Part shown: positions 33,001-39,000 of the stretch, piece by piece
Layout of the letters: every line of letters starts with the position of its first letter
How positions within the stretch are numbered: the first letter of the stretch is position 1
Assembly (NCBI GenBank): GCA_949025205.1
Contig: CARMXJ010000001.1
Span: 12,980-76,979 of the forward strand
Length of the DNA: 64,000 bases
Direction: 5' to 3'
Source of the DNA: an uncultured Bacilli bacterium
GTDB lineage: Bacteria > Bacillota_I > Bacilli_A > RF39 > UBA660
Position numbers: made by a program

Positions 33001-36000
33001 CTCAAGCAATAACAAAACATCTTCAAAATATATATAATGATGGCGAATTGCAAAAAGAAGGAACTTGTTCCAAAATGGAACAAGTTCAAAAAGAAGGAAA
33101 TAGGAATGTCAAAAGAAATATTGATTTTTATAATTTAGATGCAGTTATTGCTGTTGGTTATCGTATAAACTCTAAAAAAGCAACTCAATTTAGAATTTGG
33201 GCTACAAGTGTATTAAAAGATTATATTATTAAAGGATTCAAAATTGACAAAGAGCGTATGAAAAATGGGCCAAAGTTTGGGAAAGATTATTATGATGAAT
33301 TACTTGAAACCATTAAAGAGATTCGTTTGAGTGAAAGAAGGCTATATCAAAAAATTACAGATCTTTTTGAAGCAACTAGTGTTGATTATAATAAAGATTC
33401 AGAGAGTGCTTATACATTTTTTAAAATAGTTCAAAATAAACTTCATTATGCAATCACAAATCATACAGCTGCAGAACTTATATATAATAGAGTGAATAGT
33501 GAAAAAGAACATATGGGTTTAACGAATTGGAAAAATGGTCCTAATGGTAAAATTATGAAGTATGACGTATCAATTGCTAAAAATTATTTAAATGAAGATG
33601 AAATAAAAAAATTAGAAAGTCTTACAACATTATTTTTAGATTATGCTGAGGATATGGCCAATGAACAAAAATTGATGACAATGCAAAAGTGGATTGTTGC
33701 AACAGATGATTTATTAAAATTTAGAAATAAAGAATTATTAACACATTCAGGTAATATTTCACATAAGCAGGCTATAGAAAAAGCAAATAAAGAATATGAA
33801 AAATTTAGAGTGAAGCAAGATAGAGAATACATCTCATCTATGGATGAGATGTATAAGAGGTATTTAGAGGAAAATAAAAAATAGGCTTGTATAAATACCA
33901 GTCTCCTATGAAGAACTTGGCAAAGAGGCAGTAAGTCTTAAATCAGAAAGTGTAATAACAATTCCAGCAAATGTGAAACACTGGCATAGAGCAAAAAAAG
34001 ATTCATGGTTCAGTCATGTAGTAGTTGAAGTGCCAAGAGAAGATACATTAAACGAATGGTGAACCAGTAACAGATGAAGAATATAAGAATTTAGATGTAT
34101 GAAATGAGAGTGTTATAATGGATTTAAATTTAAGAAAAGTAACTTCCAATAAAGATATAGCTTTATTTGTAAAGTATAAAGTTTTACTTATTAAGTATCA
34201 CCAACAATATGCTAATGCACTCGGTTTAGTTGATAAGATAGTTGAAAAGTATAATGAAAAGGATGCAAAAAAACATATTGGTGAAAATAATTTTTTTCAA
34301 TATATTATAGAGTTTGAAAATAATGATGCTGGTATACTAGAATATAGTATTAAAACATCTGATATTGATAATAAAAGTATCCTATATATAAAAAATGTAT
34401 TTATAGATAGTAAATATAGAGGATTTGGAATTGGCAAAGAAGTTTTACTAAAAATTAGAAATGAAACAGATTTTAGGATTGAATTAGAATGTTGGTATGG
34501 AATGCCTGCCAATGAATTATATAAAAAATTTAGGAATGAAGGAATTAAAGACAAGATATATTTGGAAAAAATAGTCTTACATAAATTCCAGTTTTTTCCT
34601 ATTAAGAAGAAACAAAGCGAGAAAGTTAAAACATAAAGATATAGTAAATATCCATGCATAATATTTTGTTTATTTCAGTTTGAGCTAGTAATAGCATATT
34701 ATAATTTTTCCTACTATGGAGATTTACTCGTAAACTTTATGGGTTGGCTAGGAATACTTTCATGCCTAATTATAGGAGATTTGTACTTTAATAAAGAAAA
34801 TAGAATTACTAATTATTTTAAAAAAGATTATAGGAGTTTACTAAATGAATTACAAAACAGAGCAACTGGTAGAGAAAATTTTCTTTTTTCATGATACAAT
34901 ATTAAGAGTAAAAAATAGTAATTTGAAAGTGAGAAAAGTACTATGGATCAGGAAAAATTTGGGAAATTTATTAAAGATATAAGAAAAAAACATAATTTAA
35001 CCCAAAAACAACTAGCTGATAAATATAATGTAACTTATCAAGCAGTAAGCAAATGGGAAAATGGTCTTTCATTTCCCAAATGACACAACAAGAAAAATTG
35101 CAAGATTTGCTTTATTTTAAAGGGAAAATCGACACTTATGATATTAAGTTAGAATCAATAAAAGAGGTCGAAAAAGAGCATAATTTCAATATAATTCTAT
35201 CAATTATCAAATAATAGCTGTATTTCTACATAATTATATAAAATAATGTTCTTTACTATAAAATGAGAAAATCTTATCAGGTTTGAGTGTCAGTTGGGTA
35301 TGAGAAGTCATGCCCTTTTATATTATTTATTAAAGTAGATTATGATTCAAAAATGAATTTATAAAAATATGAGGTAACTCATGTTTTTTTTGTTAAAGGT
35401 AAATGAAAGGGGGAATTAATGAATAATAAAATAATAAAGATTGGAACTTTTTTTAGTGGGATTGGAAGCCCAGAAAAAGCATTAGAAAGATTAAAAAATG
35501 AAGGATATATAAAAGATTTTAAGGTAGAGTTTTTTTCTGAAATAGATAAAAATGCAATCAAAAGTTATTGTGCCATTCATAATATTAGTGAAAATTTAAA
35601 TTTAGGAAGTATAATAGAAATCAATGGAGAGTACTTACCTTACTGTGATTTATGGGTAGGTGGATTTCCATGTCAAGATATTTCTTGTGCAGGTAAAATG
35701 AGAGGATTTGAGTTTGAAAGCTCAACAAGATCCAGCTTAGGATGGGAAATGATAAGACTTTTGCGAGAAGTTAAAGAAAAACCAAAGTTTGTGATATTTG
35801 AGAATGTCGCAATGATAAAAAGCAAAAAGTTTAAAGATACTTTAGAACTTTTTAAAGAAGATTTAACAAATTTAGGATATACCTTATATGATGATATATT
35901 GGGTGCTAATGATTATGGAATACCTCAAAAAAGAAAGAGGTATTTTTTAATTGCAATTTTAGATGATAAAAAGAATTTTGAATTTCCTAAAAAAATAGAA

Positions 36001-39000
36001 AAAGAGATAAAATTAAAGGATATACTAGAATCAGATATTGATGATAAATACTACTTAACTAATTCTGATTTTGAAGAAATTGATAATAAGATTGTTTTTA
36101 AAAATAAAAATAGAGAAAATATAAAATATGAGATTGATAAAACTAAAATAAAAAGTGGTGGTATATGTGGTATTGACAAACACACTAAATTTGCAATTTC
36201 ATCAAGAGTGTTCTCAATATATGGAGATGCACCAACTTTAACTGCGAGTAATACAGCAGATAATAGCAAAATTGTAGTAGAAAGTGAGGATTGATGAGAA
36301 TAAGAAAATTAACTTCTAAAGAATGTTGGAGACTAATGGGGTTTGATGATTCTGATTATAATAAGGCTAGTAAAGTATGTAGTGAAACGAATCTTTATCA
36401 TCAAGCTGGTAATTCAATAGTAGTAGATGTAATGTATTATATTTTAAAGGAATTATTAGTATAATTTCAGAGTATGGGAGTTGCTATTTAATGGTAATTC
36501 TCATACTCTTTTTTTGTGCAATGAAAAAATCAACTTAACATTGATTTTTATAATACTTTATTTCTTGTTTTTTTTCTTTAAATAATCGTTCCATTAGATC
36601 TCTTCTAGTTAAATGTTTAAAGACTCCTTCCATATTTTTATAGTACTGTAAAGCTTCATTTTTGTCGATAAACTCTTTATAAAATTGATTCTTTTTTGTT
36701 TGTTCATTATATTGTATAGATACACTAAATTCATAGTGGTCGCTAATATTAGTAATATCTTCATAAATATTAACTACTCTAATATGAAATTCATAGCCAT
36801 CTTTTATATAATTACGATGTTTTAATGTTTTTCTTCTTAATTTTATAGGTGTATTGACTAATTTAACAACTTCTTTATTTTGTGGCTTTTGATGTCTAAA
36901 TATTTTAAATATACTAAACTTTTTCTTTTGAACAGTCAAGGGTGATTTATTTGATAATTTTTTATCGACATTTTTTTTGTATTTAGCAATTTCCTCATCT
37001 AATTTATCTAAATAGGGGAATGCTTTATTAATTTCACTTTCCATAGAATATGATACATCTTGATCTAACATATAAAATCACCTAATCTTTCTTTTTTTAT
37101 TCTTTTATCTTATTCTTTCTATCAATTCTTGAGCTAAATCTTTAAGCTCATAAGTATTTTCTAATAAATATCCTAATTGTACTTGATACATTGATTTAGT
37201 TTTTTCATTCATCAAAGGATTAAATAGATATAATAAACCATAGCTATTACAATTACATAGGCAAATCAGGCGGAGTGCGTTATATAATTTATCGACATCT
37301 TGAATTTTATTTATATTAAAATTCTGAATATCAATTTTATAATCGTCTAAAAATTGCTGAATAATCTCTGTATAATCTATGAATTTTAATATTTTATAGA
37401 AGTTAATAATACATATTTTTTTAAATTCTAATTCATAATATGGAATAAAATTGTTATCTCCTAAATATTTTTTAGTTAAAAGTAGGGGAATAGTGTCTTC
37501 ATAACATAAGACTGTTTCTATAATAGTATTTCCATATTTTTTTAAAAACCAAAAGTCAACATTGAATCTGAACATGATATGATGTAAAACATCTATAAAT
37601 TGTTCTTCGCTAGTTAAATATCCTTTACGAACCAAACAAGTAGTATTGGTTGGTGTAATCTCATTATCTAATGATTCTATAACATGATCTAGTTTTTTAT
37701 CATTAATCATCATTAATATAATGGCACTATTTAAATTGTTTTCTTTTTTAATTACTTTTCTTAATTCTCTTTTTCTTTCTTTAATACTCATTATTTATAC
37801 AATCGTTCATTTTCTTTTAAGGCAAATAAAGTCATATCTACTTTACTTTTTAATTCTTTTAAAGAAATTTCAGTTTTAAAGTATGAATTATGATATGGAG
37901 TTAATTTTAAATATTTTATATTTTCTTCTGTTTCAATATTTATTATATATTCATCAGAATTATTGTAAGTAACTTTAAAGGTCCCATTTTCATATAAGAT
38001 TGAATATCCAGTTAATTCATAGCTTTGCCTATTATTTTTAAAGTGTTTTTGTAATGCCTTTTTTAAAAAATATTCTTTCATCTTTGATTTTCGTTTCTTG
38101 GCTTCACGAGTCGTGCGTGTATGACCGGTAATTGTCTATAAATAAGGTATAATCTGTTCATACTATTTATATAGGAGTGGGTGATAAAGTTGAAATTACA
38201 AGCTGATGAATATACAACAGAAGATATCCTACGAATTTTGAGAGAGTGGACTGGACTAACTCAAAAAGAATTTGGAAAAACGATTCATAGAACTGAACGT
38301 GGTATTCAAGCGTTAGAAACTGGATATAGACATCTAACTGTAGATACTTTATTACAAATTGCTAAAACTCATAATATAAAAATAGTAATGACTAAGGATG
38401 CTTCAAAATAAGAAGTATTTTTTTATACCTGAAACGATTTATTGCACCTCCTTCCTGCACATGAATAACTATAGCAAAAAAATGCAGCACAAAACAAGAA
38501 ATTGACTAAAAATATCTTGTTATTGTACTGCTTATATTATTTACTATATACTAAATACTAACTCATAGCGTCCCAAAAGTCAATAGTTCCTCATATTTCT
38601 TTTAAAATTAGTATGGGTGATACTATGGTTACAAGATATAATCCTACTACAAGGTATGAAGAATTGAGATTAGATTCGGAGAAAAGGCAAGGAGATATTG
38701 CTGAAATATTAGATGTTAAAAGAAATACTTATTCTAAATGGGAAAATTGTATTAATGATATGCCTTTAGAAAGGAGTAATGATTTAGCAAATTATTATCA
38801 TACCTCTTTAGATTATCTTTTAGGGTTATCTAATAATCATGTGAATATAGAGGAAAAATTAAATATCGATTGGGATATGTTATCAAAGAGAATACTTGAA
38901 TTACGAACAGATAATAAATTAACTCAAAAGGAGCTTAGTAAAAAGTTAGGATTTCCTCAAACGACATATTCTCAATATGAGACTGGAAAGAGAAAACTTA

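Follow-up and report, generated by a model that had tools for sequence, protein, structure and literature searches.

The stretch of DNA analysed here (the window, 64,000 nt of contig CARMXJ010000001.1 from an uncultured Bacilli bacterium) is AT-rich, with a GC content of 22–36% that lies mostly at 25–30%, and carries nearly all of its genes on the + strand. Positions 35065–39158 hold a C5 cytosine methyltransferase encoded in two pieces, an operon of opposite polarity for three proteins (p96, p228 and p178) and two genes of XRE-type helix-turn-helix (HTH) regulators. As comparison with other contigs indicates, this segment forms a separate module of 4.1 kb that has exact ends and moved recently; it is referred to below as the unit. 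A preliminary description of the same DNA had singled out 35419–38411 and considered it a possible remnant of a restriction-modification (R-M) or other defence locus, or else a toxin or abortive-infection operon. The features listed in it are present, but the locus runs on to a second, double-HTH gene (38613–39089) and to the ends of the unit. The flagged genes are the core of a mobile module found in at least ten contexts and neither a decayed R-M remnant nor a decaying chromosomal island.

Exact look-up of the 228-aa protein returned many contigs with a constant gene set in unrelated surroundings. The set consists of a short HTH fragment, a small open reading frame (ORF), the methyltransferase of 291+56 aa, the three ORFs of the operon and HTH genes of 73–76 and 158 aa. 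BLAST of these loci against the window gave one block of 98–99% identity with ends near 35040 and 39160. Contigs carrying the unit, its relatives or its modules were fetched (612 kb of DNA in all) and bear labels such as L002. The form of the unit present in the window (variant 1) occurs at 98–99% identity in L002–L009, L053, L055, L058 and L060 with unrelated flanks, in at least ten genomic contexts of uncultured gut Bacilli. A 4.6-kb contig from a mouse-gut metagenome-assembled genome (MAG) of an ‘uncultured Bacilli bacterium’ is essentially the unit by itself. The unit is carried, for example, by the community ERR3199521. Several contigs end at the left end (L041) or the right end (L042, L065, L069) of the unit, as is usual for assemblies at repeated or variable junctions. 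Megablast of 34000–40500 against plasmids and phages gave no match, and no circular junction of the right end with the left end was found in the fetched contigs.

Two further variants agree with variant 1 in body and right end and differ in their left ends. Variant 2 (L045, L047, L048, L056) is 85% identical over window positions 35384–39156. Its left end is formed by 340 unrelated nt that begin with GGGGAGAATAAAGC, and it sits in four contexts other than XRE genes, with flanks ending in ..GG. Variant 3 (L057) has a third left end and interrupts a ZIP transporter gene after the codons for HNIPEG. The genes of the 76-aa and 158-aa HTH proteins and the right end are nearly 100% identical in variants 1 and 2, with a synonymous divergence (dS) of 0.01–0.02. 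The remainder of the unit shows a dS of about 1, so that the unit is a mosaic.

Candidates from known classes of mobile element were rejected. No transposase family of an insertion sequence or transposon matches, the ends share only CAAATGAC and GTAATTTG, and no duplication is seen at the junctions, as far as occupied sites reveal it. For an IS200/IS605-type element the subterminal hairpins are lacking at the module starts, and for a group I or group II intron the unit has the wrong ends.

The methyltransferase is encoded on the + strand. Its large subunit (35419–36294, 291 aa) harbors the target-recognition region and motifs I, IV, VI and VIII (FFSGIGS, GFPCQDIS, FENV and QKRKR); it matches PF00145 at profile positions 3–237 (E 5e-48) and TIGR00675 dcm (169 bits), in both cases above the cut-offs. 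The small subunit (36291/36294–36464, 56–57 aa) contains motifs IX (RKLTSKECWRLMGF) and X (AGNSIVV) and matches PF00145 at positions 274–322 (E 6e-12). Together they display the motifs of a C5 (Dcm/HhaI) enzyme, in two ORFs of different frames instead of a single polypeptide, in every copy and also in variant 2. A frameshift before motif X had been reported; the split itself is real, but it sits already before motif IX and not only before X (GNS). The stop of the large ORF overlaps the in-frame ATG of the small one (TGATG at 36292–36296). In variant 2 the two parts comprise 292+56 aa and the junction reads GTA TAG TA ATG, where the window has GAT TGATG. Between variants 1 and 2 the ratio of nonsynonymous to synonymous divergence (dN/dS) is 0.10 for the large ORF and 0.14 for the small ORF at a dS of about 0.9 (small ORF 0.92), i.e. 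both parts are under purifying selection. The split is not a lesion, because it is kept in all copies and at this divergence, with both parts selected and the stop/start junction changed. A pseudogene would not hold two open frames and a stop/start arrangement for so long; the enzyme, called degraded before, is therefore split, not broken, and by its substitution pattern conserved and selected.

It is hardly conceivable that the locus is what is left of a decaying R-M system whose methyltransferase a frameshift had inactivated. That there are two ORFs in different frames would fit this explanation, and so would the lack of a restriction gene nearby: the methyltransferase is indeed an orphan, as first described, with no nuclease family or fold in the neighbouring ORFs and hence no adjacent endonuclease as in type II R-M systems. 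Against it stand the presence of the split in all copies across a dS of about 0.9 with a stop/start junction that changed between lineages, the dN/dS of 0.10–0.14 in both parts and the 98–99% identity of recently mobile copies. Two other explanations of the split were discarded. A programmed −1 frameshift has no slippery site here, and variant 2 has a stop, 2 nt and ATG; reading through TGA in genetic code 4 leaves the frame still different.

Among solved structures, M.HhaI (E 2e-26) and M.HaeIII are the best relatives in the catalytic core. The alignment to the CG-specific 4dkj/8c56 runs through the variable region to residue 289, which may be taken as a weak hint at CG specificity. Among PHROG families, the phage methyltransferase phrog_116 fits best (E 8e-58). 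The methylase is missing from the related modules of L051, L010 and the P0035 family and is thus not obligately paired with the operon.

Natural two-polypeptide C5 methyltransferases exist, namely M.AquI and M.EcoHK31I, and fragments of monomeric C5 enzymes can complement one another (PMC3404938). In both natural enzymes the ORFs are likewise adjacent or overlapping, the large one carrying motifs I–VIII and the small one the C-terminal motifs (PMC3404938). The position of the split varies: it lies inside the variable region in M.AquI, sets only motif IX apart in M.EcoHK31I and falls just before motif IX here. As expected for an M.AquI-like enzyme, both ORFs are kept by selection at the sequence level. 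In contrast to M.AquI and M.EcoHK31I, the putative enzyme described here has no cognate restriction enzyme and is located in a mobile module. The orphan methyltransferases of phages, plasmids and integrative conjugative elements (ICEs) are similar as well, being solitary Dcm-type enzymes of mobile elements beside a regulatory region. The enzyme of the unit differs from them in consisting of two polypeptides and in its position beside a CpG-dense operator that, speculatively, it might modify. For annotation this means that a ‘frameshifted’ methyltransferase can be a selected two-subunit enzyme, for which a pseudogene call would be wrong.

A terminator hairpin with a 19-bp stem and a T-run (36469–36509) separates the methyltransferase from the convergent operon. 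The three minus-strand ORFs of 96, 228 and 178 aa are found just as described earlier, from 38081 back to 36535: p96 is encoded by the first gene of the operon (37791–38081), p228 by the second (37105–37791) and p178 by the third (36535–37071). Translational coupling had been proposed for the whole operon. It holds for p96 and p228, where the stop of the former overlaps the start of the latter by one base (TAATG at 37789–37793), but not for the p178 gene, which follows 33 nt further with its own ribosome-binding site AGGTGAT. The dN/dS values of 0.11, 0.15 and 0.28 for p96, p228 and p178, respectively, correspond to purifying selection, under which all genes of the unit stand. Scans of the three proteins against Pfam, PHROG, PADLOC and NCBIfam gave nothing usable; the lack of recognisable domains was thus noted correctly. 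No solved fold matches the proteins convincingly. Nuclease or toxin folds, for which remote homology and the structure models of p228 and p178 were inspected, were not seen.

The AlphaFold2 model of p228 is confident (mean predicted local distance difference test score, pLDDT, 91.9) and all-alpha, and the protein carries an invariant KGYLTxxEQ motif. A structural neighbour was not found for the model, and the profile search of the PDB ended without a match. There is no invariant arginine or histidine in p228, and its fold is unlike those of tyrosine, serine, DDE and HUH enzymes; as a tyrosine recombinase it was rejected for want of the invariant arginine. In p178 a conserved N-terminal helix is followed by a Lys-rich disordered linker and a well predicted C-terminal domain of a four-strand sheet and two helices. 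In the model this domain looks DNA-binding-like and appears to resemble the arm-binding domains of integrases. Neither p228 nor p178 shows a conserved acidic or histidine catalytic constellation, and p178 has no nuclease-like fold or motif. A T8 run on the + strand (36971–36978; A8 in the coding strand of p178) is one base shorter in L002, L003 and L008, which splits p178 into 44+134 aa in otherwise intact copies. This shortening could be phase variation, decay or sequencing error.

Only 8 homologues of p96 were found. The p228 family comprises 177 clusters at 50% identity, and its longer members have no informative fused domain. Neither tblastn of p228 against plasmids and phages nor a scan of IMG/VR with the p228 profile gave a hit. 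In 23 of 42 loci a member of the family is divergent from a double-HTH gene, the commonest neighbour. The family heads several different operons, some of which seem, when read by eye, to continue with sigma-factor-like or ArpU-like proteins. Distant homologues in L012–L015 and L077 are single genes beside small membrane proteins that look like competence prepilins, beside rplQ-rpoA-rpsK-rpsM and beside adk-secY. Since such single-gene copies stand in a conserved chromosomal neighbourhood near rpoA, the p228 family is not confined to mobile elements.

The operon is faced by a small XRE-HTH gene of 73–76 aa at 38181–38411 on the + strand (PF01381, E 3e-8), which agrees with the divergent HTH gene of the preliminary description. 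Between the divergent promoters lies an operator patch (38092–38128) that is rich in CpG and GC. Here the reported perfect palindrome CACGA-G-TCGTG (CACGAGTCGTG, 38105–38115) was recovered at 60–65% GC against 22–29% in the region. With 5 CpG in 50 nt the patch has the highest density anywhere in the 64-kb window, where CpG is depleted overall (685 observed vs 1134 expected). A TATAAT at 38148–38153 precedes the small HTH gene, and the palindrome stands upstream of it. The position of the palindrome is conserved in L051, where the 228-aa protein is 55% identical and the bases are changed (TCACGATACGTGA, TCACG-ATA-CGTGA).

The small HTH protein is 100% identical in variants 1 and 2. Further downstream on the + strand, 38613–39089 encodes a double XRE-HTH repressor of 158 aa that is RstR/CI-like. 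HTH_3 matches it in two stretches (E 3e-21), and against the RstR family NF041951 it scores 73 bits at a cut-off of 80. An inverted repeat of 16/17 nt around TTGACT (38484–38499 and 38515–38531) lies upstream of this gene as a candidate autoregulatory operator. In the distant relatives L073 and L010 the repeat holds its position with changed arms. No Rfam family was found in 34000–41000, the repeat included. The HTH proteins weakly match PADLOC Control_protein models (E 0.015 and 1e-4) and also antitoxin-type models.

In layout, the arrangement corresponds to the immunity modules of temperate phages and ICEs (CI/Cro, RstR, ImmR), in which an XRE or CI-type repressor is likewise divergent from an early operon with palindromic operators in between. 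Unlike in those modules, two HTH genes stand in tandem, and the proteins of the operon match no Cro, antirepressor, excisionase or ImmA family. Type II R-M systems controlled by C-proteins also combine a methyltransferase with a small HTH protein of XRE type and a palindromic operator. The unit differs from these, as no endonuclease gene follows the HTH gene, the operon is divergent and the palindrome is not a described C-box.

Close to the proposal of the preliminary description, though without the idea of a remnant, the same regulators might be thought to silence a cargo of the defence, abortive-infection or toxin-antitoxin kind, in which p96, p228 and p178 would form a novel effector complex and the methyltransferase would give self-protection after the logic of R-M systems. 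Restriction enzymes and defence effectors often have no detectable homology. An orphan methyltransferase that stands, in a mobile element, convergent with an operon of this sort is compatible with such a role, and so are the divergent XRE regulators, the operator palindrome, the control-protein and antitoxin-type matches of the HTH proteins and the presence of a PemK toxin in one element that has a related operon. We nevertheless consider it unlikely. The PADLOC signatures matched are generic HTH and methyltransferase models, none of them for p96, p228 or p178. Two HTH genes that are divergent and not co-transcribed, together with the lack of any toxin family match, do not make a toxin-antitoxin pair. 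The all-alpha p228 without structural neighbour, the p178 without nuclease-like fold and the missing catalytic constellation speak against an effector, as do the modules of L051, L010 and the P0035 family that do without the methyltransferase and the p228-family single genes near rpoA and ribosomal protein genes in the core chromosome. Judged by its gene neighbourhoods, the p228 family would belong with the early or regulatory genes of mobile elements rather than with defence effectors.

The right end of the unit (39094–39158, + strand) is identical in all variants and consists of a terminator-like stem with a T-run, an extended −10 box TGGTATAAT (39115–39123) and a type-A docking site ACAAATAGTAATTTG (39144–39158). 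The 12-nt sequence AAATAGTAATTT is the site that follows the promoter, and AAATTACAATTT is the site at the 3′ ends of modules; when reverse-complemented, the upstream AAATA-GT-AATTT is almost identical to the downstream AAATT-AC-AATTT. Such 12-nt sites lie in the window at 34913–34925, 39146–39158, 40183–40194, 40252–40264 and 40848–40860. Directly behind the unit on the + strand, a module with an Erm(42)-like 23S rRNA methyltransferase gene (39159–40194) ends in AAATTACAATTT (type-T site). It is followed by type-A site no. 3 and an OmdA-family module (40252–40860, + strand) that has matching ends and terminates in CAAATTACAATTT.

The sites recur in L002, L007, L053, L055, L066, L067 and L070, with presence/absence polymorphism and tandem arrays. 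At least 11 different right flanks start at one nucleotide after AAATAGTAATTT, most of them with a ribosome-binding site and ATG. L005 and L006 have the left context and the unit in common and diverge after the unit. A single 70-aa module, which the 12-nt AAATAGTAATTT flanks as a direct repeat, distinguishes L002 and L053. The Erm(42)-like protein (303 aa; Erm(42) 269 bits, broad Erm model 211.3 against a cut-off of 212 in NCBIfam) occurs in identical form in at least six contexts with fixed ends, from AGTAATTTG and a ribosome-binding site to ..AAATTACAATTT. These modules (L031–L039, L055, L058, L065, L069) lie, for example, beside a Mob_Pre relaxase gene or downstream of a two-component/ABC operon. 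In L055 an ANT(6) module is placed between the erm and OmdA modules. Four different modules join one conjugative backbone at AAATTACAATTT/ACAAGATAGATC. Elements of the P0035 family have genes like those of p228 and p178, encode a PemK toxin and bear, at one end beside secA, a tyrosine integrase; they finish in a matching terminator, −10 box and site, in one case followed by the identical erm module. The two 12-mers occur in about 58 distinct contexts in the 612 kb against about 5 expected from base composition, a descriptive figure as the loci were chosen for carrying these elements. The exact right-end 25-mer was not present in JGI metagenomes.

Other mobile elements appear to target these docking sites. 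In L045, L048 and L054 a group II intron (RVT_1/GIIM ORF, 5′ GTGCGCC) is inserted exactly behind AGTAATT of the docking site (cf. window 39156), and IS110-family transposase genes adjoin like sites in L003, L025 and L062.

The array has the make-up of an integron (intI, Pc, attI and attC cassettes) in its outward promoter, its docking site and its series of mostly promoterless single-gene modules that end in a site and include resistance genes. It differs from an integron in that the sites are 12-nt near-palindromes, another kind than the structured 57–141-nt attC, some modules are separated by short terminator-plus-promoter segments, and the host belongs to the Bacillota. No IntI-type tyrosine recombinase is encoded in the unit or in the window. 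The pdif modules of Acinetobacter are likewise discrete, carry resistance genes, are bounded by short sites and occur in many contexts without encoding a recombinase of their own. In contrast to their 28-bp XerC-spacer-XerD sites, only 12–14 nt are conserved around the module ends here, and the location is a conjugative element and a Gram-positive chromosome. A 28-bp dif-like site at the right end was considered and dismissed: the similarity to TTATGTA is at chance level and is missing from the P0035 family. The 12-nt sites are also unlike the dif sequence of B. subtilis and the Firmicutes consensus. Nothing relevant on the 12-mers, or on systems of the integron or dif kind in Firmicutes, came out of a search of the literature.

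At least one of p96, p228 and p178 might itself belong to a new site-specific recombination machinery that captures promoterless modules at AAATAGTAATTT, the unit being an integron-like platform. The layout would suit this, the operon being divergent from promoter and docking site, after which single-gene modules follow, each ending in a short site. The promoter-plus-site end is common to two element families with p228-like and p178-like genes, neither the unit nor the 64-kb window has a gene for a known recombinase, and the DNA-binding-like domain of p178 resembles integrase arm-binding domains. Such a machinery is quite improbable, however, given that p228 lacks invariant Arg/His and has a fold unlike known recombinases, that modules are also found far from any unit and that p178 is frameshifted in several otherwise intact copies. 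The more distant p228 modules lack the site behind them, which likewise makes the trio a less plausible recombinase. Tyrosine or serine recombinases are encoded near some arrays (L055, where a tyrosine recombinase of 283 aa is found, L053, L026), which makes a conventional enzyme acting in trans the simpler explanation. Equally doubtful is the corresponding wider claim of an undescribed gene-cassette system of gut Bacillota, in which the trio, with folds unlike any known recombinase, would supply or direct recombination at 12-nt AAATWGTAATTT sites, including the homing of the platform into the similar CAAATGGGAAAATGG (S-K-W-E-N-G). If it were true, this system would exchange erm, ANT(6) and ABC-F resistance modules, and the unit would be its promoter-bearing platform.

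At the left end, the unit begins inside a truncated XRE-HTH gene (34943–35083, + strand, 46 aa), which is derived from the target up to 35064 (..S-K-W-E-N-G) and from the unit from 35065 on (LSFPK, stop). The junction 35064/35065 is straddled by an 11-bp inverted repeat (35050–35082), with CAAATGGGAAA on the target side and TTTCCCAAATG on the unit side. Its left arm is the conserved K-W-E coding sequence present in every XRE target. Nine XRE-type HTH genes that have diverged at the DNA level (in the window, L002, L003, L004, L005, L007, L053, L058 and the MAG contig L009) are fused after the S-K-W-E-x-G codons (..AAATGGGANNNNGG) to an identical TCTTTCATTTCCCAAATGA, which leaves truncated HTH proteins of 43–49 aa. 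When the XRE target CAAATGGGAAAATGG is laid against the site CAAATAGTAATTTG, as read from the sequences, 10 of 14 positions agree and the junction falls at an equal offset. This agreement and the 11-bp inverted repeat suggest that one recombination system uses the XRE motif as a pseudo-site. Upstream of the XRE target in L009 (reverse complement, about 90–180) there is a short structured-looking segment that by its look resembles a small RNA of the signal recognition particle (SRP) type.

Type-A docking site no. 1 (AAATAGTAATTTG, 34913–34925, + strand), an exact motif preceded by a −10-like TGATACAAT, is located upstream of the interrupted XRE gene. The XRE::unit segment of the window is thus bracketed by two direct type-A sites. 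In L043 the left flank is identical to the window up to the site at 34913, whereupon an ABC-F gene with a leader peptide replaces XRE::unit. In this contig, which comes from a sister sample, the short leader peptide (MRTLTK) and then a hairpin stand between the site and the ABC-F (ARE-type) gene (2090–2279 of L043, cf. window 34926 onward).

Taken together, we lean, with moderate confidence, towards a regulatory or establishment module of a mobile element, situated inside a cassette array on a conjugative element. For the role of the operon, regulation or establishment would come first, defence or toxicity second and novel recombination third. Orphan methylases of phages, plasmids and ICEs protect DNA that enters restricting hosts. 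By analogy, the two-polypeptide methyltransferase would be active and would methylate the DNA of element and host, protecting the former on entry into restricting hosts, and it may also methylate the CpG-dense operator. The double-HTH (RstR/CI-like) and the small HTH proteins would act as a repressor/Cro-like pair, with the palindrome and the inverted repeat in front of the double-HTH gene as their targets, and would keep the divergent p96-p228-p178 operon off until a signal arrives. The operon itself would then be early or regulatory in the life cycle of the element and not a nuclease or toxin, with p178 as a putative DNA-binding protein and p228 as a possible regulator or anti-repressor-like partner. 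A site-specific recombinase encoded elsewhere may move the unit and the neighbouring modules by acting on AAATWGTAATTT-type sites, the XRE codons CAAATGGGAAAATGG serving as a pseudo-site by their resemblance to CAAATAGTAATTTG.

Several observations weigh against the establishment module as drawn here. Neither the unit nor the 64-kb window encodes a recombinase, with no Phage_integrase match, and the 12-nt site is absent from the distant p228-family loci. Variants 2 and 3 use other left ends and targets other than XRE genes. The proposed insertion into XRE genes derives from a comparison of occupied sites; on the right side of the unit the 3′ remainder of the XRE gene did not turn up in any case, in the window not within 25 kb rightward, and an attR-like copy of the target motif right of the unit is likewise lacking in the window. 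Simple insertion into a pseudo-site fails for the right junction, and therefore a two-site exchange that deletes what lies between the sites, or a much larger element with its right end beyond all contigs, is needed. Moreover, the same right-flank cargo accompanies the unit into different XRE genes (L002/L053 and window/L004/L058).

This joint travel of cargo and unit favours the explanation by a larger element, according to which the unit would be the left-terminal region of larger integrative (conjugative) elements whose distal integrase, encoded beyond the window, targets XRE genes, with 35064/35065 as attL. The seemingly independent moves of a 4.1-kb unit would then be moves of entire elements with variable cargo. 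It would also account for the extension of long contigs leftward from the unit in all cases and rightward in almost none, and it agrees with the conjugation genes to the right of the unit in the window, with an 11-bp inverted repeat straddling the junction as in att core sites and with the tyrosine integrase at one end, beside secA, of the P0035-family relatives. We regard it as possible, though rather less than likely. Against it, L066, L067 and L070 have other modules in front of the same backbone, though the view upstream is only 0.02–1.1 kb there. The XRE::unit segment between its two direct type-A sites is replaced by an ABC-F gene in L043, variants 1, 2 and 3 combine a common body and right end with different left ends, and neither an XRE remainder nor an integrase lies within 25 kb rightward.

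Insertion at one conserved codon position of XRE regulators would be an unusual and testable target specificity. If the exchange at the docking sites is truly site-specific, it would represent an integron-like or dif-module-like route of resistance-gene shuffling in Gram-positive gut bacteria, of which no description was found in the literature searched. The unit gives a promoter to an exchangeable array to which an Erm(42)-like gene belongs; like modules on neighbouring contigs contain genes for ANT(6) and ABC-F. Three new protein families without known domain, one of them predicted with confidence to have a fold without structural neighbours, are linked here to a recently active mobile module and a recurrent double-HTH repressor, which makes them good targets for experiments.

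On the right, the conserved conjugative backbone starts at 40861, directly after the OmdA module. A segment from a LysR gene (40921) through VirB4 recurs on many contigs, the variable region being located just upstream of LysR. The stretch 44782–64000 encodes a thioester/SpaA adhesin (1245 aa), a single-stranded DNA-binding protein (SSB), a type IV secretion system (T4SS) pilin, a VirB4-like ATPase, an M23 hydrolase and a Toprim primase. In the three contigs where this backbone is preceded by other modules (L066, L067, L070), the short upstream sequence of 0.02–1.1 kb contains no unit.

On the left, the RhuM/GNAT stretch is an accessory, rearranged region. Two diverged RhuM-family genes (30672–31673 and 32850–33884) have 66% DNA identity and are accompanied by flanking repeats, 75–80% identical, around a HAD-like gene. 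Immediately to the left of the GNAT gene (33900–34060), a fragment of another gene seems, by eye, to be present.

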